Sequence record: PZ452612.1
DNA length: 64,000 nt
Reading direction: 5' to 3' (one strand)
From: a phage
Below the pieces are notes generated by a model, which was not told the DNA's origin, did not search any database, and saw nothing but the letters and a program-made list of their open reading frames with translations. Both the position numbers and the translations under genes were made by a program. Shown piece after piece: positions 883 through 41,083 of the stretch (positions within the stretch are counted from its first letter, which is position 1; every line of letters starts with the position of its first letter).

Positions 883-1269
883 TTATAGATTCGGTTTATA
901 TGATTTAAATGTTTCGAATTCGCCTTTATTCATAAGAGCTTTGAATTCGTCAGGACGCATAGCTTTGTCGTCGATAATCCAATCATATACTGGTTTATGT
1001 GTTAGCAAATTATGGTACTTCAAACCAATGTTTTCCAAGTTCTGAATCAGACTTGGGAGAATGTCAATTGCTATACGACCAGGACCTACTGACTTCATAC
1101 CGCGAGCAGTGTAAAGCGTTATGGTATGCCCTGCATCATACAGGGCATTAATAGCAGTCACCATTTCGACGTCTGGTTTGAAGTTCACGTAATCACGATT
1201 GTTATTCCACTCTGTTATACAATCATCGACATCAAAACAAAGATTAAGCATGTTTTCTACACGGTGCAT
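883..1269 (-). CDS. HAD-superfamily phosphatase (putative sugar-phosphate phosphatase)
   Basis: HAD motif I DxDxT (FDVDDCIT) near N-terminus; ATG at 1269 overlaps the stop of the upstream gene (TAATG). Track ORF 883..1284 trimmed to this ATG. Confidence 0.6.
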   Translation of the reverse strand: MHRVENMLNLCFDVDDCITEWNNNRDYVNFKPDVEMVTAINALYDAGHTITLYTARGMKSVGPGRIAIDILPSLIQNLENIGLKYHNLLTHKPVYDWIIDDKAMRPDEFKALMNKGEFETFKSYKPNL

Positions 1270-2954
1270 TAGATTCGTTCCCATTGATGAGTGATATCGC
1301 CACCGATTGGACGATAAGAAACACCAGTTTCTTTATCAGTTAGTACCCATTTACCAGGATTTTTTGTAATCAGAGTAGCCGTTACAGGTTCTGCTACGTC
1401 ATAACTAATAGAGCCGTCCTGAAGTACACGGCCCATGTTACGTAATTGCTTAGTCAGAAGTTCCATACCTTTATAATATGCGGCTACCGCTTTAAGTGGA
1501 TTATTCTTGAAATAACCACCTAATGCAATCCAGATAATTGCTACAGCCAAATGATGATACTCGTTAAACGAACTCATCTTTCCATATTTGTAAACTAATG
1601 GATTGATGTTAATAGTCACATTACAAGTTGTTTCGTCAATAGTAAACTGTCCCCAGGTCGGATTAGCGTTGAATTCATCATAACCTGAAACAGCATAAAG
1701 CACTTTAGCTTCATCATACAATTTTGGCCCGTAAATCTTGGTTTCGCCAAAATATCCACGAGGGTCGATAAACTTGACTTCGCCGTTATCAGTAATCATA
1801 GTATTACTGAAGTTCGGGTCACCGTGAATAACAGAGTACTGTCCCTGAGAACGGGTATGATAACGAATAAGATGTTCTAAAGCTTGCTTCAGCATTGGCT
1901 TCAGACGTCCAATCTTAGTGTAGTTCACGTGTGTGATTTTACCAAATGAATCAATCAATGGCTGAATGCTTTCACAACGATCAATAACTTTCGTATAGAA
2001 CTCTTTAGTGAAATCACGGCGAACAGTTTCAGGACTTACAAAATAAGTGTCTGTGCTGAATTTCAGTGCATCTAAAATTGCATCAACAATTTGTGGACGA
2101 GCAAGACTTGATTTGGATTTAATATATTCAAATGCTGGCTTACCTTTAATACGTTCCATTTCAAAATTATTTTCATTTACCGAAACTAACTGAGGAACTG
2201 AATCTGATTTCACTTTCAAATACCATGAAATCTCATCTTTTTGAAGAGCTCGACCTTGTTCGGTTAACGCGAATTTAGTTACAGTTTCTTCGCCAATTTC
2301 AACTGCATTAAAACTACGATTAAGTTCACGAACTTCATGAGCTTTTTCAAGTTTAGGCATATCACCTAAATCAATTAGATTCATAAGCTCTGATTTATTG
2401 AATGCACTGCCGTAAAGGAATTCTACGAAATCACGTCCTTTGCAGTATTCATGAATTTCCTCATCAGTAGAACCCATGTAGAATTCCCAGTCTTTGAACT
2501 GATAAATTCCTACAACATTACCGCCTGTTGAACCTACGTTAGTGATATTTTCACCATCGAAATTATATCGACATTCATCACCCTTAACATAGATTGCGTT
2601 AACATTCCAAGACCATGAACCAAAATCAGGAATAATATCACACCAGTTAACAATTACGTTATGGCCATCTAAATCTTTGTATAATTTAGCAAGAGCATAA
2701 GCAGAACCATACGCTTCATCAACTGTACGAATAGTCACATTGAACCCTTCTTGCTCGCAATAAGCTCGAACAGTTTCAGCAAATTTTGAATGAACTACTA
2801 CAATAATTTCATCTGCGCCAAGGTCAGAATAAATTGTATACAAATTGCTCAGAATAGTGTCTTGTTTATAGTTAACAAGAACTTTTGGAATATGATGCGT
2901 TATTGGATACAAACGAGTTGCCAGTCCAGCACCAAGAATAACAGCTTTTTTCAT
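1269..2954 (-). CDS. Bifunctional sugar-1-phosphate nucleotidylyltransferase (N-term) / APH-fold anomeric sugar kinase (C-term)
   Basis: 561-aa ORF. N-terminus MKKAVILGAGLATRLYPIT resembles RmlA-type G-x-G-T-R-L motif; C-terminus HGDPNFSNTMITDNGEVKFIDPRGYFG resembles APH/choline-kinase-like HGD..N...D motifs. SD GAGGA upstream. Confidence 0.7.
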   Translation of the reverse strand: MKKAVILGAGLATRLYPITHHIPKVLVNYKQDTILSNLYTIYSDLGADEIIVVVHSKFAETVRAYCEQEGFNVTIRTVDEAYGSAYALAKLYKDLDGHNVIVNWCDIIPDFGSWSWNVNAIYVKGDECRYNFDGENITNVGSTGGNVVGIYQFKDWEFYMGSTDEEIHEYCKGRDFVEFLYGSAFNKSELMNLIDLGDMPKLEKAHEVRELNRSFNAVEIGEETVTKFALTEQGRALQKDEISWYLKVKSDSVPQLVSVNENNFEMERIKGKPAFEYIKSKSSLARPQIVDAILDALKFSTDTYFVSPETVRRDFTKEFYTKVIDRCESIQPLIDSFGKITHVNYTKIGRLKPMLKQALEHLIRYHTRSQGQYSVIHGDPNFSNTMITDNGEVKFIDPRGYFGETKIYGPKLYDEAKVLYAVSGYDEFNANPTWGQFTIDETTCNVTININPLVYKYGKMSSFNEYHHLAVAIIWIALGGYFKNNPLKAVAAYYKGMELLTKQLRNMGRVLQDGSISYDVAEPVTATLITKNPGKWVLTDKETGVSYRPIGGDITHQWERI

Positions 2955-2995
2955 GTTGTGGTCCTCATTGGTAAGTAGGTGTATTGTACACTATT

Positions 2996-3139
2996 CTAGT
3001 TAAAGCATTCATACTTTGCTTGTAGTCCAATCATAATCCATCCAATTACAAGTGTTGGAATCATTACTGGAGCCGTTAAGCTCCAGTAGATAGTCATGAC
3101 AAGCATCAATAGTAAAAGTCCTATTGTTATTGCTTTCAT
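2996..3139 (-). CDS. Candidate small hydrophobic membrane peptide (47 aa), not in ORF track
   Basis: ATG at 3139 overlaps the isomerase stop (ATGA); translation MKAITIGLLLLMLVMTIYWSLTAPVMIPTLVIGWIMIGLQAKYECFN is strongly hydrophobic. Confidence 0.3.
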   Translation of the reverse strand: MKAITIGLLLLMLVMTIYWSLTAPVMIPTLVIGWIMIGLQAKYECFN

Positions 3140-3771
3140 TGTTCGCCTCGTAACATGGCACCTAGTGCACCGCCTGGATGGAACTTAAGAAAGTCATTAG
3201 AGGTAAATCCACGTTCAGACGAAAGGTTGATAGCAAACGTATCGATAAGCGCTAACAACAATGTAGTGGACATAGTCGGAGCCAGAGAATTCTCATCAAC
3301 CTCTACCGCGATGCCTGTACAGAAAGAGTAATCAAAAAGGGCTTCATTTTCTTGCGGAATGTCTGGGTTACAATGCAACAGAATCTGTTTGACATTTGGA
3401 CGAATCATTTTAAGATGCTTAGCCACGCCTATCATTTCTTCAGTCTTACCAGAACGACTAATATGAATCAACACATCATTAGGCGCAATGAATCCTGCAT
3501 CACCGTGAGAATAATGCCCAGTGTTCAAGTACATACTCGGGATACCGAGTGAAGCAAATGTCTCAGAAGCTTTAGTTGCAATATTAGCATTCTTACCAAC
3601 ACCTGTAATAATTACTCGGCTTTCATAATTACTAAGTCCAGGGCGTCGAAGAGTTTCTAGAATAGCATTATAACGAGCAGGGTTTTGACTAATTACTTTG
3701 GCCATAGCGGCCAAAGAAGAAGCTTGTTTTATGATTGCGTCAATAGCGATAGTAATAGGAGTAGTTTTCAT
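3136..3771 (-). CDS. SIS-domain sugar-phosphate isomerase, KdsD/GutQ-type (arabinose-5-phosphate isomerase-like, no CBS domains)
   Basis: 211 aa; motifs ITGVGKNANIATKASETFASLGIPS, HISRSGKTEE, LAPTMSTT and FHPGGALGAML resemble KdsD SIS domain; lacks the GNGGS pattern I associate with GmhA. Confidence 0.7.
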   Translation of the reverse strand: MKTTPITIAIDAIIKQASSLAAMAKVISQNPARYNAILETLRRPGLSNYESRVIITGVGKNANIATKASETFASLGIPSMYLNTGHYSHGDAGFIAPNDVLIHISRSGKTEEMIGVAKHLKMIRPNVKQILLHCNPDIPQENEALFDYSFCTGIAVEVDENSLAPTMSTTLLLALIDTFAINLSSERGFTSNDFLKFHPGGALGAMLRGEQ

Positions 3772-9979: not shown

Positions 9980-11668
9980 TTATGAAACAGTCATTACAGT
10001 AAATCGTCCAACTTTGCTCATTTGAAGATGTTGTCCATAACGTTGAGGGTCATGGTCTCTATGAGAAATAATGAACACGTTAGTATTTTGTAAACTTCCA
10101 AGAATGGTATCTATAGCCTTAACAGCCTCAGAATCTACAGCGCCGTCAAAAACTTCGTCAAGAATAAGAGTGTTGATTTTAACACCAGAGACCTTTTCAG
10201 CAATATCTCGCCATGTAAACAACAATGCGATATCGATACGTGCCTTTTCACCTTGACTAAATGAAGCATAACTAAAATCTTCACGACCACGTGATTTTAT
10301 AGATTCATTGAATTCTTCATCAATAGAAAACACGTAATCGGCTTCCATGATTTTAAGATAATGGTTAATCTGCTTGTTGAACAGAGGCACATATTTTTTA
10401 ATGATAGCACCTTTAATACCAGAATCTTTTAACATATCTGTGATAATACCACGATGGTATTTTTCAAGAACGATATCCGATTTTGTTTTAATGATTTTAT
10501 CAAGTTCTTTTTGAAGCAAAGCTATCTCATCGGCATGGTCGATAAATTCCGCCGAGGCTTGTTCTATTGCAGCTTTAACTTTCTTAGCTTTATCAATAGT
10601 GGCAATCATTGCTTGTTTCTTGGTACGAATATCAGATGCAAGGTCCTGCTTAGTCTTAACATTAGCTCTATATTCGTCCACTAGGACACTCAGATTATCT
10701 CTGTGGCAGGTAAGTTGCTCGAATGAGTGATTACATTCATGAAGCTTATCGGTAATCTTAGAGACAATAGGGTCACCCTGGTGCAACTGTGATGCGCAAG
10801 TAGGACATGTACCGCCATCATGATACATCTTAATAACTTTGTTATATGAGTCAATTTTAGATTTAATCAAGAATGCTTCTTGTCCTATCTTGTTGAATGC
10901 CTCAGTAGGGTCTTCGTCAAGAACGATATTAAGTAGACGCTCGTTAGCTTCTTCGATTTCTGCTTTTAATGACCGAGCTTCTTTGGCTAGGTCGTCGTAC
11001 ATATTCTGTAGACGCGCTACATTATCACCAGATAATTTCTTTTGACGTTCGATGTTCTCATTATAAATCTTAATTTGTTGGATAATACCATCTTTCTTGG
11101 CATCGAGAACTTGTCCCTGGGAATTAAGTTCTCGAACTTGAGACTTATTGATTTTATCCATTTCAGCGAGTGTGCCAACTTCTAATAAGTCTTCAACAAG
11201 CTTTCTGCGAGCAGGGGTGCTAAGAGCCATGAAAGGGGTATACCCTGCCGTCCCAAGCACAACGATTTGTTTAAAAGACGCGTATGACATTCCGATGCTA
11301 CGTTCAAATTCTTCTTGGAAGTCACGACTGCTGGCAGATTCATCAAGACGAACACCGTCAACGGAGATTTCGAAAATATTGGGCTTTTGGCCACGTTTAA
11401 TGAAGTATTTTTTACCATCGAATTCCATCCAAAGCTCAACTAAGAGCTCTTTCTTGTTCGTGCTATTAATGATTTGTCCTTTCTTAACATCACGAAATGG
11501 TTTACCGAAAAGTCCGAAAGTGATGGCTTCTAACATCGTAGATTTACCACCGCCGTTTTTACCAGTGATTAATGTCTTTTGGACTTTATCTAATTGGATA
11601 TCAATAGGATTCCCACCTACCGACATGATGTTTTGATAACGAACACGATTTAATTTAAATGATTTCAT
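9980..11668 (-). CDS. 46: Recombination endonuclease subunit gp46 (Rad50/SbcC-like ATPase)
   Basis: 562 aa; Walker A GKNGGGKST, central coiled coil, CPTC zinc hook-like motif, C-terminal ILDEVFDGAVD. Confidence 0.95.
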   Translation of the reverse strand: MKSFKLNRVRYQNIMSVGGNPIDIQLDKVQKTLITGKNGGGKSTMLEAITFGLFGKPFRDVKKGQIINSTNKKELLVELWMEFDGKKYFIKRGQKPNIFEISVDGVRLDESASSRDFQEEFERSIGMSYASFKQIVVLGTAGYTPFMALSTPARRKLVEDLLEVGTLAEMDKINKSQVRELNSQGQVLDAKKDGIIQQIKIYNENIERQKKLSGDNVARLQNMYDDLAKEARSLKAEIEEANERLLNIVLDEDPTEAFNKIGQEAFLIKSKIDSYNKVIKMYHDGGTCPTCASQLHQGDPIVSKITDKLHECNHSFEQLTCHRDNLSVLVDEYRANVKTKQDLASDIRTKKQAMIATIDKAKKVKAAIEQASAEFIDHADEIALLQKELDKIIKTKSDIVLEKYHRGIITDMLKDSGIKGAIIKKYVPLFNKQINHYLKIMEADYVFSIDEEFNESIKSRGREDFSYASFSQGEKARIDIALLFTWRDIAEKVSGVKINTLILDEVFDGAVDSEAVKAIDTILGSLQNTNVFIISHRDHDPQRYGQHLQMSKVGRFTVMTVS

Positions 11669-11913: not shown

Positions 11914-12148
11914 CCTCGATACATGCTTCAGCCATTTTAAGAATAGAGCCAGGAGTATCGTTGTCCATTATATTAAAGCTAAATTCAATAGCCCAGTCGG
12001 TACAGACATGAACGGCTTTAACTTCATTGCCTTCAACGCGTAATGGCTCAATCCAATACTTGATAGTGTTCTCGAATCCATCATCATCTTTAACGTCTAT
12101 TTCAACTTCAAGCCCAAGCCCGGCATTGTTAAATTCATCTAAAGTCAT
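11891..12148 (-). CDS. Hypothetical acidic protein (46.2-like position)
   Basis: 85-aa ORF between 46.1-like and 47. Confidence 0.55.
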   Translation of the reverse strand: MTLDEFNNAGLGLEVEIDVKDDDGFENTIKYWIEPLRVEGNEVKAVHVCTDWAIEFSFNIMDNDTPGSILKMAEACIEDAYNDED

Positions 12149-13164
12149 TGTGTTGCCTCAATATAAAGTTCGTTAGAATATTTGACCAGCGCTTCTCTGT
12201 CTTCGTCTGAGATATCTGGAATCGCGTCAATATATTCTTTAATGATATCTTGAAGTGATTTAATCTCGATTTCCTGGTCGTCATCAGATTCAACACTGTT
12301 ATCAACTTTAGAAACCATACGAAGAGAGTGAACTACTTTTTCAAGTTCAGATTCAAACTTAGTCAACTCTGAATCAATTTCTGATACTATAACACGTACG
12401 GCTAGATTAGTATAATCAGAATAATTGATTTTGCCTTTAAACGGATAAGTGATTCTTCGATGCCATGTTGTTTCATTAGGAATAAATTCCATACGTTCAA
12501 CATCAGTGTCAAATACCCAGAATCCACGCGGGTCGTTCTCATCACCTGCAGTAAGGGTCCACGGTGTTCCAATATATTTGACGTTAGCAGCTTCAGAGAT
12601 TGTGTGGAAGTGGCCTGACCAGACTTGTTTATAAGTCTTTAAGAAATCAGGTTCAAGCCCATGAGACTTCATCCCTTTATAGAAATAAAAGCCGTTCAGT
12701 TCCCAGTGCCCAACACAATACGCAGCAGAAGAAGTCTTGATGTGCTCTAAGATTTCACCTGTATTTTCTTCACACATCCATGGAACGATATCAATCAGAC
12801 ATCCGTCAAAATCTACAGTAGTCGGATGCTCATAAATAGTAAAGTTTTCAAATTGAGTTAACAATTCAGAAACAGTGTTAGGTGTTATTGTATTCTTAAA
12901 CGCCATGTCATGGTTTCCTATCGTGACATGAACGTGAATGCCTGCTTTAGAAATCATATCAACGATTTCACGATTGAATTCCATTGTACGATGTGTTATT
13001 GCTTTACGGACGTCAAACCAATCACCGTACTGAATCCAAGTTTTAATCCCGTGTTTCTTAGAGTATTCAATTGCTTGTCGAATACCATCACGTTGAATAT
13101 CTTGAACCCATGGGTCGTCTTGTTTGACTCCGATATGGAAGTCGCCTAAGTGCAAAATTTTCAT
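12145..13164 (-). CDS. 47: Recombination endonuclease subunit gp47 (Mre11/SbcD-like phosphoesterase)
   Basis: 339 aa; calcineurin-like motifs HLGDFH, GDWFD, GNHD, GHWE. Confidence 0.95.
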   Translation of the reverse strand: MKILHLGDFHIGVKQDDPWVQDIQRDGIRQAIEYSKKHGIKTWIQYGDWFDVRKAITHRTMEFNREIVDMISKAGIHVHVTIGNHDMAFKNTITPNTVSELLTQFENFTIYEHPTTVDFDGCLIDIVPWMCEENTGEILEHIKTSSAAYCVGHWELNGFYFYKGMKSHGLEPDFLKTYKQVWSGHFHTISEAANVKYIGTPWTLTAGDENDPRGFWVFDTDVERMEFIPNETTWHRRITYPFKGKINYSDYTNLAVRVIVSEIDSELTKFESELEKVVHSLRMVSKVDNSVESDDDQEIEIKSLQDIIKEYIDAIPDISDEDREALVKYSNELYIEATQ

Positions 13165-13208
13165 ATTATTTCCTCATTAGTTAATTCATTTTATCATCCG
13201 TTTATAAA

Positions 13209-13235
13209 GCAAAAAAGGAACTCCGAAGAGTTCCT
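13209..13235 (-). terminator. Rho-independent terminator (minus strand), UUCG tetraloop plus U6
   Basis: Stem AGGAACTC/GAGTTCCT around cgaa; minus strand reads hairpin followed by TTTTTTGC; lies between a small ORF and gene 47. Confidence 0.6.
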
Positions 13236-13407
13236 ATCCACATAGTACACCGTACAGAGGCTCATTTGAACTTTTAAATCGAATTGGCTTGTACGTAATA
13301 GTTCCTTCGGCTTTAGCTTTATCATAAGACTCTTTAAAACGTCTCATTCTTTCTGCTTTGCCTTTACGGATTTTATCGAAATTTTCAGAAGTCGGGATGT
13401 TCGTCAT
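13234..13407 (-). CDS. Candidate small basic protein (57 aa), not in ORF track
   Basis: ATG at 13407 preceded by GAGAGGTG SD-like; MTNIPTSENFDKIRKGKAERMRRFKESYDKAKAEGTITYKPIRFKSSNEPLYGVLCG; stop inside terminator stem. Occupies the T4 alpha-gt region. Confidence 0.35.
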   Translation of the reverse strand: MTNIPTSENFDKIRKGKAERMRRFKESYDKAKAEGTITYKPIRFKSSNEPLYGVLCG

Positions 13408-13446
13408 GCATAAGCACCTCTCAGAAAATGCCTAAATCAATTTCTC

Positions 13447-13653
13447 TCATCGTTTCCACCATTTCTTAACTTGAAATGAATCGGCCCACACGAGTTGTTT
13501 TGGGTCTGCCTTTACAATAGGCGGACAAATTTCTGTAATAGAACCGTCGTGATATTCCTTTTCAGAAATTTTAACACAAAGAGGACCTCCCAATTTAAGG
13601 GTGAACCCTGCGTTCAGCTTCAGACGTTTAAACTTTGTTTGAACTAGCGCCAT
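13447..13653 (-). CDS. Hypothetical small protein
   Basis: Track ORF 13447..13668 trimmed to second ATG; start uncertain. Confidence 0.4.
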   Translation of the reverse strand: MALVQTKFKRLKLNAGFTLKLGGPLCVKISEKEYHDGSITEICPPIVKADPKQLVWADSFQVKKWWKR

Positions 13654-13951
13654 TAATGATGTCCTCAATAGCCTGACGAGTAGTAACCCACTGGATTTTA
13701 ATTAACTTGTCATTGTATGGTTGTCGTAGAATATCCCGAGATTTCTTAATAGCATATTCGTAAGCTTCGAAGTTGTTTTGAATTGCTGCTTCTTGAGCAT
13801 GAGCATAAAGACGGTTTAGTTCAAAACGATTCTTTTTAAGAATCTTTTCGGATTTTTTACGTGCTTCAGCTTCATTTTTCTTTTGGATTTCTTGTAGCAT
13901 TTTAGCTACTGCATCTTCTGCTTCTTTATTTTCAATAATCTCGGTAGTCAT
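13628..13951 (-). CDS. Hypothetical protein (107 aa, Lys/Glu-rich)
   Basis: ORF track; located between 47 and 55 where T4 has alpha-gt. Confidence 0.5.
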   Translation of the reverse strand: MTTEIIENKEAEDAVAKMLQEIQKKNEAEARKKSEKILKKNRFELNRLYAHAQEAAIQNNFEAYEYAIKKSRDILRQPYNDKLIKIQWVTTRQAIEDIINGASSNKV

Positions 13952-13952
13952 A

Positions 13953-14168
13953 TTATCTCATTAAATTAAAATAAAAACGTCCATCCTCTTCAATACAGAA
14001 CTCATACTCAACTGGAGTCCCATTTATCGAAAATGACACGTCATGTGGGTTCAAAGGGTCGATGTCAAAATTAATTTTAAATTCACGACCCAACAGTTTT
14101 ACCAAATAAGGGATTGCTTCGTCAAAAGGTTCTTCTAAGTAGTTAGAGATGTCAATTGTCATCCTCAT
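13953..14168 (-). CDS. Hypothetical small protein downstream of gene 55
   Basis: Track ORF 13953..14246 overlapped gp55 by ~95 nt; trimmed to internal ATG just after the gp55 stop. Confidence 0.4.
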
Positions 14169-14709
14169 ATAAAAAATCCAAACTAGGCGAATCGCTAACA
14201 ACTTCCTTCTTTTCAGCCCCAGGAGCTTTATAAGCGGATTCTTCATAATGCGTCATTTTATCGTAGATGTCTTGAATAAACGTTTCATCTACTAACGCTA
14301 CCATATCATCGTCATGACTGTCGTAGACATTATGAACGAAGTAACTATATTTCTTTGCAACTTCCTTACGTTCTTTTTTGATACGTTGGACAAAAGCATT
14401 AAAACAAGCTCGAGTTATGTATGCATGTGGGTTATTGTACTTAGTTTCGTCGAAATTATGAAGTCCCTTAATAGAGGCTTCAATCCCATCTGCAATCATC
14501 TCCTGCTTCCAAGACTGGGTATATCCTGAAAAGTTGAAACGTTTGGACAGGCCTTCGGCGATAAGCATAATTGCTAAACCGATGGTATCATTCTGACGAA
14601 TAATTTTGTTTGGGTCTTTATTATTTAAGAGCTCCTTTTTCCACTCGATTATAGCGGCGAGAAGCTCTTTATTATTCACATAGTTATTTTTAGGTTTTTG
14701 TTCAGTCAT
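14152..14709 (-). CDS. 55: Late-transcription sigma factor gp55
   Basis: 185 aa from internal ATG ([35 protein letters not shown]...); T4 gp55-like. Confidence 0.95.
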
Positions 14710-18144: not shown

Positions 18145-18615
18145 TTAATCATGTTTCCACACCCCATTGGTATTCGACCAAAGTCGCTGATTATCTGATC
18201 CTCGCCACAGTTTTTTGGTCGGAAGATTTTTCTCATACTTCCCATCAATAATAACATCAACATATTTAAGCATTTCTAGTTGTTTAATATCTTCAAACTT
18301 ATATCCTGTCCACAACCAAATGCTTTTATTGGGATAAATATTTTTTACTGTTTGAACAATGCAATGAACAACATCTCTATTATCAGGATAGAGAGGGTCG
18401 CCTCCGGTTATAGTCAATCCTTCTATATAATCATTATTCAAACATTCAATTAATTGTTCTAGTGTCTCTCCAGTGAATGGAGCACCATTTCTAGCGTTCC
18501 ATGTTGATTTATTATAACACCCTTCACATTTATGCAAACAACCTGTAACGAAAAGAACGACCCTGCAACCAGGGCCATTCACAAAATCGCAAGGATAAAA
18601 TCTATCATAATTCAT
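18145..18615 (-). CDS. nrdG: Anaerobic ribonucleotide reductase activating protein NrdG (radical SAM)
   Basis: 156 aa; Cys cluster GCLHKCEGCYNK; immediately downstream of nrdD. Confidence 0.9.
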   Translation of the reverse strand: MNYDRFYPCDFVNGPGCRVVLFVTGCLHKCEGCYNKSTWNARNGAPFTGETLEQLIECLNNDYIEGLTITGGDPLYPDNRDVVHCIVQTVKNIYPNKSIWLWTGYKFEDIKQLEMLKYVDVIIDGKYEKNLPTKKLWRGSDNQRLWSNTNGVWKHD

Positions 18616-20429
18616 TGGTGTTTAACCCTATGCATGATTTCTTTATTTTTACCGAGATTAAATCCGCGTTCGTTCGGATTTCCCAAATAACCGCATGTTC
18701 TTCTTATGGTGTTCATCTTTTTAGGATCAGTTTCTCCGCAAACTGAACAAACAAATCCGTTTTCAGTAGGAGTCATTTCATGGGTACTTCCACATGTAAA
18801 ACATTTATCTACTGGCATATTAACACCAAAATAATCTAAATGTTGTGCAGCATAATCCCAGACAGCCTCAAGTCCCTTTAAATTGTTTTTCATATCTGGA
18901 AGTTCAACATAAGAAATGTGACCACCTGTCGCAATGAAATGATATGGCGCTTCACGAGAAATCTTTTCAAACGGAGTAATATTTTCTTCTACTGAAACAT
19001 GGAAACTATTAGTGTACCAGCCTTTATCTGTAACATCTTTTACACTTCCATATTTTTCTGTGTCTAGTTTACAGAAACGATAACAAAGGTTTTCAGCAGG
19101 TGTAGAATACAAGCTAAAAGCAAACCCAGTTCTTTCAGTCCATTGTTTAAGAAGAGCATTCATTTTAGTTAAAATTTCTTGTCCAATATCACGTCCGACA
19201 AGAATATTCAATTCGTGGATACCAATGTATCCTAAAGACACTGAACTTCTACCGTTTTTAAATAACTCAATTATGTCGTCATCAGGTTTAAGACGAACCC
19301 CGAATGCACCTTCTTGGTAAAGAATAGGAGCAACAGTCGCTTTAACTCCTTTTAAGGAACTAATTCTACACATCAAGGCTTCAAAACACAGATCCATACG
19401 TTCATTGAATAATTCAACAAATTTCTGTTCATTGAACTGTGTTCCAATATAAGAATCTAATGCGATACGAGGAAGATTCAGTGTTACAACACCGAGATTA
19501 TTACGTCCATCAAGAATTTCATTACCAGTCGAATCTTTCCATACGCTCAAGAAACTACGGCAACCCATTGGAGAAACTGGAACTGAAGAACCAGTAATAG
19601 CTTTATTATTCTTAGCTGAAATAATATCAGGATACATTCTTTTGCTTGCGCACTCTAGAGCAAGCTGCTTAATATCATAGTTCGGATCGTCTTTATAAAG
19701 ATTAACACCTTCTTCAACGAACATAACAAGCTTAGGGAAAATAGGAGTTATTCCATCACGACCAAGACCTTTAATGCGGTTTTTAAGAATTGCCTTCTGA
19801 ATCATTCGTTCAGTCCAATCGGCCCCCGTACCAAATGTAATTGTTACAAAAGGCGTTTGTCCGTTTGAACTAAAGAGAGTATTTACTTCATATTCATAAG
19901 CTTGGAACGCGTCATAGACATCTTTTTCTGTTTTGGATTGAGCATAATTCAACGCATCAGCGATTTGCCATTTTTCCGCATCTTCAACATGTTTAGCGTA
20001 TGTGCGTTTAACATAAGGAGAAAGAACTTTATCGACATTTGCAAATGTAGTTCCGCCATACTGATGTGAAGCAACTTGTGCAGTAATTTGTGCCATAATT
20101 GCAGTAGCAACACCAATCGATTTAGGCGTTTCAATTTGAGCATTGCCTAATTTAAATCCGTTCTCAAGCATCCCCTTTAAATCGACTAAACAACAATTAG
20201 TAAACGGAAGAGCAGGAGAATAATCAATATCATGCATGTGGATAATTCCACTTTCATGCGCATTCATAATAAAAGACGGGACCATATTTTTGGCAATGTG
20301 CTTAGACACAATACCAGCCATAAGGTCCCGTTGAGTTGGAAAAACACGAGAATCTTTATTAGCATTCTCGTTTAAAAGGTCTTTATTAGTTTTATGAATT
20401 AATCCTTCAATTTCTTTTTCAATTTTCAT
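18612..20429 (-). CDS. nrdD: Anaerobic ribonucleoside-triphosphate reductase NrdD
   Basis: 605-aa uninterrupted ORF; C-terminal Zn-ribbon cysteines (CFTCGS...CSVCG) and glycyl-radical motif RRTCGYLG. Confidence 0.95.
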   Translation of the reverse strand: MKIEKEIEGLIHKTNKDLLNENANKDSRVFPTQRDLMAGIVSKHIAKNMVPSFIMNAHESGIIHMHDIDYSPALPFTNCCLVDLKGMLENGFKLGNAQIETPKSIGVATAIMAQITAQVASHQYGGTTFANVDKVLSPYVKRTYAKHVEDAEKWQIADALNYAQSKTEKDVYDAFQAYEYEVNTLFSSNGQTPFVTITFGTGADWTERMIQKAILKNRIKGLGRDGITPIFPKLVMFVEEGVNLYKDDPNYDIKQLALECASKRMYPDIISAKNNKAITGSSVPVSPMGCRSFLSVWKDSTGNEILDGRNNLGVVTLNLPRIALDSYIGTQFNEQKFVELFNERMDLCFEALMCRISSLKGVKATVAPILYQEGAFGVRLKPDDDIIELFKNGRSSVSLGYIGIHELNILVGRDIGQEILTKMNALLKQWTERTGFAFSLYSTPAENLCYRFCKLDTEKYGSVKDVTDKGWYTNSFHVSVEENITPFEKISREAPYHFIATGGHISYVELPDMKNNLKGLEAVWDYAAQHLDYFGVNMPVDKCFTCGSTHEMTPTENGFVCSVCGETDPKKMNTIRRTCGYLGNPNERGFNLGKNKEIMHRVKHQ

Positions 20430-20899
20430 TTTAAACTCTTTCTAAGCTGCTTTTTGAATGAAGCTATTAATTGTGTTTTAGTATCAGATTCATTATATTC
20501 AAATCCTCTTTGAAGCATCTCAGTCATCATTTCCTCTTTACCTAGTCTTGAGAACTCTTTAGTTTTGTCTGGAACAAAATTAGGATGGATATTATTATCA
20601 GAATAATCTTGTTTCAAATAAGCAAGAAGAGCTTCAAGCCATTCGAGGTAATCAACGTTTTGACCTTTAAGACCAGAACGGTTGAACTTATGCTTCATTT
20701 GACCTTCTGCTGCATTGCACAGGTTACATAGTAAACCACGAACCTTACCAGCTTTTGGCCCGTTTAATTCATGGTCGTGGTCAAGATGGTTACCTTGAAC
20801 ATCAGGGTCTAATTCACGGTGGCAAATAGGACACTTACCATTCTGTGCATCATAAAATTTTTGTTTTTCTTCTTTATATTTTGCGCCTGATAATAACAT
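20426..20899 (-). CDS. 49: Endonuclease VII (Holliday junction resolvase) gp49
   Basis: 157 aa; MLLSGAKYKEEKQKFYDAQNGKCPICHRELD...HLDHDHELNG matches T4 endo VII as recalled. Confidence 0.95.
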   Translation of the reverse strand: MLLSGAKYKEEKQKFYDAQNGKCPICHRELDPDVQGNHLDHDHELNGPKAGKVRGLLCNLCNAAEGQMKHKFNRSGLKGQNVDYLEWLEALLAYLKQDYSDNNIHPNFVPDKTKEFSRLGKEEMMTEMLQRGFEYNESDTKTQLIASFKKQLRKSLK

Positions 20900-33252: not shown

Positions 33253-33731
33253 TCAACAATCACAATTTCTAGTTTAGTGGAATACGTATCTAAAATCTCT
33301 TCGATGACATCCCAGTTTCCGCCACCGATACCTGCACCAATTCTTGGCATATAAATTACAGGCTTTGTTATCTTATTCTTTCCGAATTCATTTAATTCTA
33401 TTATACAATTCATTAAAGCAGAGTACTCAAAATTAGGTCCCGGCTCAAACTGCGTATAAAGATTAAAGCAATAAGCTTTATGGGTCTTAAAATATTTTTC
33501 ATAAACCGAATAAGTCCCGAGTTTAGACTCGTCTCCGAATTCGGTTTGAAGTTTATCGGCTTCCAGAATTTTTGGATAAGCCTTTGCTAATTGTCCTGCC
33601 ACACCGGCGCCCATTGTATGAAAACAATTACACCCATGAGCAATATTATTACCTTTAGAAAACAGGGCGACAATATCGCCCTTGATATAGTTTTTAATCA
33701 CTTGCTGCAAGTCCTCTAGTATAAGAGTCAA
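33234..33731 (-). CDS. Macrodomain protein (putative ADP-ribose binding / ADP-ribosyl hydrolase)
   Basis: 165 aa; GDI...NIAHGCNCFHTMGAGVAGQLAKAYP and PRIGAGIGGGNW resemble macrodomain motifs (cf. YmdB-like NAAN..GGGV and ISTGVYGYP). Confidence 0.6.
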   Translation of the reverse strand: MTLILEDLQQVIKNYIKGDIVALFSKGNNIAHGCNCFHTMGAGVAGQLAKAYPKILEADKLQTEFGDESKLGTYSVYEKYFKTHKAYCFNLYTQFEPGPNFEYSALMNCIIELNEFGKNKITKPVIYMPRIGAGIGGGNWDVIEEILDTYSTKLEIVIVDWEPLL

Positions 33732-40719: not shown

Positions 40720-41025
40720 TTATTTTCCTCGACATTCTTTAATGAAATTTTCTAGATTGGTAGATTCAATAGCTTTTTTACGAGCTTCTGCGTGTTCTTC
40801 TTCAGACAATTTACATTTATAATTGACCCAGACGTTATGGTCGAAACTAGTCGTGGCATATAATAACAATGCTCCAACGAATAGCAAAAACGGCGATAAG
40901 AATACAAAACCAGGAACACCATCCATACTGTAAGCCTTTTGTAATACTGCAACAGAAAGAGCTGCGTAAAAAAGTGATACAAATATTGTTAAAAGACCAA
41001 TTCGGTTGGTTTCGCCTAATTTCAT
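40720..41025 (-). CDS. Small membrane protein
   Basis: 101 aa with two hydrophobic helices; own GTTTAC promoter upstream. Confidence 0.5.
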   Translation of the reverse strand: MKLGETNRIGLLTIFVSLFYAALSVAVLQKAYSMDGVPGFVFLSPFLLFVGALLLYATTSFDHNVWVNYKCKLSEEEHAEARKKAIESTNLENFIKECRGK

Positions 41026-41045
41026 AATATTCTCCTCATGTTTTA

Positions 41046-41083
41046 ATAGGACTACTATAACATAGTCCTATCATCATGTAAAC
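41046..41083 (-). promoter_or_regulatory. Early promoter GTTTAC...TATAGT within palindrome ATAGGACTA/TAGTCCTAT
   Basis: Repeat copy 2 of core aggactactataacatag. Confidence 0.5.

Follow-up and report, generated by a model that had tools for sequence, protein, structure and literature searches.

The window, as we call the whole 64,000-nt stretch of phage DNA under study (record PZ452612.1), carries genes 47 and 55 on its minus strand, and the interval between them holds four small minus-strand genes and one hairpin with a UUCG loop, a predicted terminator, and nothing else. The features of the locus, all on the minus strand, are as follows.

12145-13164, minus: gene 47, SbcD-like recombination nuclease subunit, 339 aa (PHROG 100, E 1.6e-135), the downstream boundary of the interval
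13188-13211, minus: putative MotA-box middle-promoter motif for gene 47, TGCTTTA-N11-TAAAAT (pattern scan and conservation)
13210-13235, minus: predicted intrinsic terminator with an 8-bp stem, a UUCG tetraloop and U6, beginning within the a-gt.2 stop codon
13234-13407, minus: a-gt.2 ortholog, 57 aa, DUF5486 (Pfam PF17588, E 4.5e-28; 76% identity to T4 a-gt.2 by tblastn, 95% to RB69 a-gt.2)
13447-13653, minus: a-gt.3 ortholog, 68 aa (PHROG 1648, E 2.9e-34; 69% to T4 a-gt.3 by tblastn)
13628-13951, minus: a-gt.4 ortholog, 107 aa, DUF2654 (Pfam PF10849, E 1e-27; 58% to T4 a-gt.4 by tblastn)
13953-14168, minus: a-gt.5 ortholog, 71 aa, DUF5491 (Pfam PF17595, E 5.8e-13; 47% to T4 a-gt.5 by tblastn)
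14152-14709, minus: gene 55, late sigma factor (PHROG 234; 91% identity to T4 gp55), the upstream boundary of the interval

The initial annotation of this DNA had described the interval as a 57-aa basic ORF, a UUCG terminator and three ORFs of 70-107 aa, with no alpha-glucosyltransferase gene (a-gt), which in T4 lies between genes 47 and 55. The RefSeq annotation of typing phage 3 (see below) agrees on genes 47 and 55. This description proved accurate throughout: the interval ORFs measure 57, 68, 107 and 71 aa only, none of them is a-gt-like, the 57-aa product is basic (13 K+R vs 7 D+E), and the T4 order (47, 47.1, a-gt, mobB, a-gt.2, a-gt.3, a-gt.4, a-gt.5, 55) bears out the comparison. T2 has the T4 order without mobB. 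The window shares with both loci the flanking genes 47 (76% identity to T2 at the protein level) and 55, the four small genes, and the hairpin with a MotA box after a-gt.2, but relative to T2 it lacks 47.1 and a-gt, and relative to T4 it lacks 47.1, a-gt and mobB.

What did not survive is the further idea that small ORFs have come to occupy the a-gt site. All four are orthologs of T4 a-gt.2 to a-gt.5, which are neighbours of a-gt in T4 too, and there has thus been no replacement of a-gt by them. Their family matches are significant and their order beside gene 55 is the one seen in T4, T2, JS98 and RB69; for RB69 it is already in the 2003 reference annotation (NC_004928), which uses the names a-gt.2 to a-gt.5 for the genes of the 47-55 interval. 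The a-gt.3 ortholog has no Pfam family match and reaches 73 aa when started at an upstream TTG, and the a-gt.5 ortholog and gene 55 have 17 nt in common, at the 3' end of the latter. A PHROG match that labels the 57-aa ORF a 'head maturation protease' was set aside as an annotation artefact, since it covers the profile of 62 positions only in part. Our literature search on a-gt.2 to a-gt.5 found no published function, and these names should not be taken as evidence for glucosylation.

By megablast the window is 99.97-100% identical to the E. coli O157 typing phages 3, 6 and 13 (Mosigvirus), and over its first 17 kb it has 97.2% nucleotide identity to RB69; it is an RB69-type (Mosigvirus) relative of the T-even phages. 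Compared with the typing phage 3 genome it has a few substitutions, and a single deletion of 8.1 kb lies at a place remote from the 47-55 interval. As to this gap itself, the 54 nt at window positions 41020-41073 match the typing phage 3 record twice, at 83639-83692 and at 75469-75522, and the window lacks the 8.1 kb that separates these two matches and carries tRNA-Met, tRNA-Arg and some 20 small ORFs. Recombination between direct repeats looks like the cause of the deletion, and the gap marks the window as the shorter genome type of typing phages 6 and 13.

Such a strain-specific deletion demonstrates that deletions do occur in these stocks, and one could ask whether the missing a-gt is likewise an artefact or a laboratory deletion of one strain. 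We consider this hardly credible, since the 987-nt interval, with 47, a-gt.2 to a-gt.5 and 55, is uninterrupted at a coverage of at least 80% in 148 independent phage records, RB69 and typing phage 3 among them, and since JS98 (Dhakavirus) is likewise without a-gt at the site. The arrangement is therefore a property of the lineage and not an accident of assembly.

The junction where a-gt would be expected is sharp. In pairwise blastn, homology between the window and T2 runs from a-gt.2 to 6 nt past the ATG of a-gt and restarts 2 nt before the ATG of gene 47, which makes it a clean replacement bounded by the two start codons, and the start codon of gene 47 in the window stands at the position of the a-gt start codon in T2. 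RB69 has the identical gene order between 47 and 55, the identical junction and the identical terminator sequence, with proteins 95-100% identical to those of the window; it also shares the sugar module, the thymidylate-synthase-like 5-hydroxy-dCMP synthase and both GT-B proteins discussed below, and it differs only by about 3% nucleotide divergence. JS98 also lacks a-gt, has a-gt.2 to a-gt.5 and carries a hairpin, a MotA box and a -10 element after a-gt.2, but it keeps 47.1 between this element and gene 47, and its loop is UUAG.

The sequence that precedes gene 47 combines a predicted end and a putative start of transcription. Read on the minus strand from 13235 to 13216, the hairpin is AGGAACUC-UUCG-GAGUUCCU, after which U6 extends to 13210; its folding energy is -12 to -14.6 kcal/mol, with z-scores of about -3. 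With a GC-rich stem and an adjoining U tract, placed after a stop codon on the transcribed strand, it is a predicted rho-independent terminator, whose activity we infer from these features. A simple terminator scan gave 2 sites in 2 kb vs 1.1 expected, a count that is not significant alone, and the support for the prediction comes from its conservation across relatives: a hairpin is kept at the position after a-gt.2 in five genera with differing stems (GGAACUC, GGAGC, AAAGGGC), and such retention despite the differences in sequence argues for a function. A terminator-like site on the plus strand at 13504-13526 was discarded, as it is antisense within a-gt.3 and at chance level.

The motif TGCTTTA-N11-TAAAAT follows the Mot-box arrangement of middle promoters, in which TGCTT(T/C)A stands at such a distance from TAnnnT (PMC4122927); the spacer of 11 nt found here falls in the usual range of 11-13 nt, and the typing phage 3 record has a MotA-like activator annotated at positions 156423-157055. 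Scanning the window for TGCTTYA-N11-13-TANNNT gave 10 sites vs 1.64 expected by shuffling, eight of these on the minus strand, which is the early/middle one. We regard the motif as a putative promoter for gene 47. Further sites of the same pattern are found, for example, at 2983-3007, 10494-10518, 20492-20517 and 33395-33420.

Alignment of the window, RB69, T2, T4 and JS98 reveals a conserved composite element, namely the hairpin, TGCTTTA, 11-12 nt, TAAAAT, a leader and a ribosome-binding site, and a MotA-box motif after a-gt.2 is found in Klebsiella phage Roth79 as well; with the similar elements that flank a-gt in Roth79 and Cronus, conservation of the composite extends to five genera. The gene downstream of the element is a-gt in T2, 47.1 in JS98 and gene 47 in the window. 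T2 and T4 have a second, similar module after a-gt, composed of a hairpin, AGCTTTA and TATAAT; in Roth79 and the Erwinia phage Cronus a GC-rich hairpin stands on either side of a-gt, and the loop is UUCG in three of these four. Two similar modules flank a-gt in T2, T4 and Roth79, one is present in the window, and the copies have only short motifs in common. In T4-type phages, cassettes that join a terminator to a promoter have been described at the edges of variable genes and named PeSL and PmSL (Arbiol et al. 2010, PMC2839356; Comeau et al. 2014, PMC4122927). The window element resembles the PmSL type in being a terminator hairpin fused to a Mot-box-type promoter, and elements of this kind likewise border a gene that is present in some relatives and absent from others; the difference is that the described cassettes come mainly with early sigma-70-type promoters and from hyperplastic regions of RB49/phi1, PST and nt-1. 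Recombination may have taken place between two module copies flanking a-gt.

The tail of the hairpin after a-gt.2 is UAUAUU in T2 (L009 3030-3068) and T4 (L002 2998-3034), a poorer terminator tail than the U6 of the window, RB69 and JS98, the phages without a-gt at the site. Judged from this difference, the hairpin may terminate less efficiently in those phages where a-gt is located downstream.

If a-gt is absent from its usual place, it could still be encoded elsewhere, and the initial annotation had named a homolog of a-gt or b-gt at another position of the genome as the observation that would speak against a non-glucosylating phage. In the whole typing phage 3 genome (168,733 bp, four pieces joined) none is found: tblastn with T4 a-gt gave at best E 1.4 over 16 aa, and with T4 b-gt at best E 3.1, both of which are noise. 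The 60 a-gt matches listed, out of 657 phage records with such matches, all belong to Tequatrovirus-type, Klebsiella, Raoultella or Erwinia phages, and there is no Mosigvirus among them. As to GT-B folds, for which a search of the whole genome had been proposed at the same time, the genome does encode two other GT-B proteins, both outside the window; not being orthologs of a-gt or b-gt, they leave the non-glucosylating reading intact.

One of the two sits in the b-gt slot, between 42 and uvsX, where an unrelated 299-aa protein is encoded together with a nucleotide kinase; it has a GT-B fold and is 99-100% identical to RB69 gp46:47. The other, of 366 aa, adjoins rIIA; it is a homolog of RB69 ORF003c/gp3 and has about 98% identity to the glycosyltransferase of phage HY126 (PDB 9iqz/9ir0). 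An AlphaFold model of the 366-aa protein was put aside (pLDDT 58, alignment of 5 sequences), as the solved structures 9iqz/9ir0 are of a near-identical protein. We consider both proteins candidate arabinosyltransferases. In RB69 the genes 46:47 and 52:53 are split by sequencing errors; here each is one unbroken ORF, of 299 aa and 561 aa respectively.

Every window ORF of at least 200 aa is either a T4-type gene (43, 44, 45, 46, 47, nrdD, nrdC.3, nrdC.5-like, nrdC.6-like, nrdC.10, nrdC.11, genes 1 and 2, baseplate and neck genes), or a part of the sugar module, or a single 228-aa ORF without assigned function. The last is too short for a GT-B enzyme. The large ORFs of unassigned function in the nrdC region were considered as hidden transferases and rejected, as they match T4 nrdC.3, nrdC.5, nrdC.6, nrdC.10 and nrdC.11 or families other than glycosyltransferases, the nrdC.5 and nrdC.6 matches being weak (24-29% identity to T4).

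The DNA chemistry of RB69 offers a reason why a-gt would not be missed. The sugar module of the window, identified with the Pfam families NTP_transferase and SIS, consists of three genes.

883-1269, minus: HAD-type phosphatase
1269-2954, minus: bifunctional nucleotidyltransferase/kinase
3136-3771, minus: arabinose-5-phosphate isomerase

The products are 98-100% identical to RB69 gp51, gp52:53 and gp55, the proposed enzymes of UDP-arabinose synthesis, leading from ribulose-5-phosphate to UDP-arabinofuranose (PMC13326640). Just before the window start, at L003 25325-26041 of typing phage 3, the gene 42 homolog encodes a protein with 25% identity to T4 gp42 (dCMP hydroxymethylase) and 99% to RB69 gp48, a thymidylate-synthase homolog for which the synthesis of 5-hydroxy-dCMP was confirmed by experiment (PMC13326640). 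Hydrolysates of RB69 DNA contain arabinose and no glucose (Thomas et al. 2018, PMC6024577), and BlastP and HMM searches of RB69 found no homolog of a-gt, b-gt or ba-gt (PMC6024577). The modified base of RB69 is 5-hydroxycytosine in mono- and di-arabinosylated form (Lee et al. 2026, PMC13326640), and by NMR and MS arabinosyl-5-hydroxycytosine fully replaces cytidine (PMC13326640). The genes of the RB69-type modification are all present here, the UDP-arabinose module in the window and the 5-hydroxy-dCMP synthase and the GT-B enzymes outside it. With pathway proteins 98-100% identical to those of RB69, we extrapolate by analogy that typing phages 3, 6 and 13 probably have the same DNA chemistry, the enzyme roles being those assigned in the RB69 literature. 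A gene for a DAHP synthase I family protein (330 aa; PF00793, E 5e-75) adjoins that of dCMP deaminase at L005 16211-17203 of typing phage 3.

The conclusion of the initial annotation, that the sugar module together with the missing a-gt points to a non-glucosylating phage, is thus supported by the module and by RB69 chemistry, with the correction that such a phage would still glycosylate its DNA, and would do it with arabinose. One may object that the phage still adds glucose by means of a divergent transferase beyond sequence recognition, for instance a GT-B protein using UDP-glucose: there are two proteins of this fold in the genome, the donor sugar is not readable from a fold, and the DLP3 glycosyltransferases, taken individually in vitro, had no activity on 5hoC DNA, so that the first transfer step was not reconstituted (PMC13326640). 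We find this very improbable in view of the arabinose, and not glucose, of RB69 hydrolysates (PMC6024577), the NMR and MS evidence for complete replacement of cytidine in RB69, the near identity of the pathway proteins and the dedicated UDP-arabinose module of the window.

Whether a-gt was lost from this lineage or never belonged to it can be approached by comparison of the genera that have it. Tequatrovirus, Klebsiella phage Roth79 and Roskildevirus Cronus all have a-gt in the identical slot and orientation, next to gene 47 and separated from gene 55 by four small ORFs, and its identity between these genera, 56-69%, tracks that of the adjacent gp47, 66-71%. By gp47 and gp55 identity Mosigvirus is nearer to T2 and T4 than either is to Roth79 or Cronus. 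Since a-gt is found in a common slot in distant genera, its absence from Mosigvirus, and from Dhakavirus as well, is most likely due to loss, an argument of parsimony built on a handful of genomes and their pairwise identities.

The opposite history would be that a-gt was never in Mosigvirus, that the RB69-type arrangement is ancestral, and that the gene was inserted independently in T4/T2, in the Klebsiella-phage lineage and in Roskildevirus by means of repeated terminator/promoter cassettes. The slot is certainly plastic, for T4 has mobB in it, 47.1 is present in JS98, T2 and T4 but not in RB69, Roth79 or Cronus, and a GIY-YIG-like ORF lies there in Mosigvirus AV116; besides, cassette-mediated shuffling is documented for T4-type phages (PMC4122927). 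We nevertheless hold independent gain to be unlikely, because the parallel identities of a-gt and gp47, the constant position and orientation of a-gt in all three groups and the nearness of Mosigvirus to T2/T4 make one or two losses more parsimonious than three gains at the same site.

The AV116 locus is peculiar in its own right. Between a-gt.3 and gene 47 (L014 1383-2186) a 267-aa ORF stands in place of a-gt.2 and matches GIY-YIG weakly (E 0.004, which falls short of the Pfam cutoff); gene 47 is diverged at its 5' end. The slot of this ORF matches the one occupied in T4 by the HNH endonuclease mobB, and homing endonucleases appear to have a hot spot in the a-gt slot.

Returning to the reading which we prefer, we consider it highly probable that this is an RB69-type phage with a conserved a-gt.5-a-gt.2 block, without a-gt and with arabinosylated DNA, the absence of a-gt being most likely a loss. 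The locus would then operate as follows. The minus-strand block of a-gt.5, a-gt.4, a-gt.3 and a-gt.2 would be read from gene 55 toward gene 47; the UUCG-loop terminator would end this block, and the fused MotA-dependent middle promoter would restart transcription into gene 47. In T2 and T4 the equivalent element would drive a-gt, with the second, similar element following that gene, and in the window gene 47 would begin at the place of the T2 a-gt start with a-gt, the second element and 47.1 all missing. The thymidylate-synthase homolog would make 5-hydroxy-dCMP, the module at 883-3771 would make UDP-arabinose, and the two GT-B enzymes encoded outside the window would transfer the arabinose. 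No glucosyl-hydroxymethylcytosine would be made, and a-gt would be dispensable because its substrate, hydroxymethylcytosine in DNA, would not be produced; the gene, being of no use to the phage, would have gone through lineage-specific loss.

As a possible course of this loss we may tentatively suggest, with somewhat less than even confidence, that the a-gt cassette was excised in the Mosigvirus ancestor by recombination between the flanking hairpin/MotA-box elements at the time of the switch from glucosyl-hmC to arabinosyl-5-hydroxycytosine, the genes a-gt.2 to a-gt.5 being kept. If this is true, the retained genes act independently of glucosylation and are misnamed by their position only.

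The absence of a-gt and b-gt and the arabinose-based hypermodification of cytosine in RB69-type phages are already known from publications of 2018 and 2026. To this our analysis brings small additions only, namely the junction between the two start codons, the conservation of the hairpin/MotA-box element and the reasoning in favour of loss, and its value lies little beyond correct annotation. The window can nevertheless be labelled with confidence as Mosigvirus with arabinosylated DNA, a label that predicts behaviour toward restriction systems, type IV nucleases and CRISPR.

A separate trace of exchange with T4-like phages is possibly retained in nrdD. Its 3' two-thirds (window positions 18595-19891) has 94.4% nucleotide and 99% amino acid identity to exon 2 of T4 nrdD, with neighbours at 70-83%, and the boundary of the high-identity tract is the site of the T4 nrdD intron with I-TevII; the tract may have arisen by co-conversion from intron homing or by a recent exchange with a T4-like phage.
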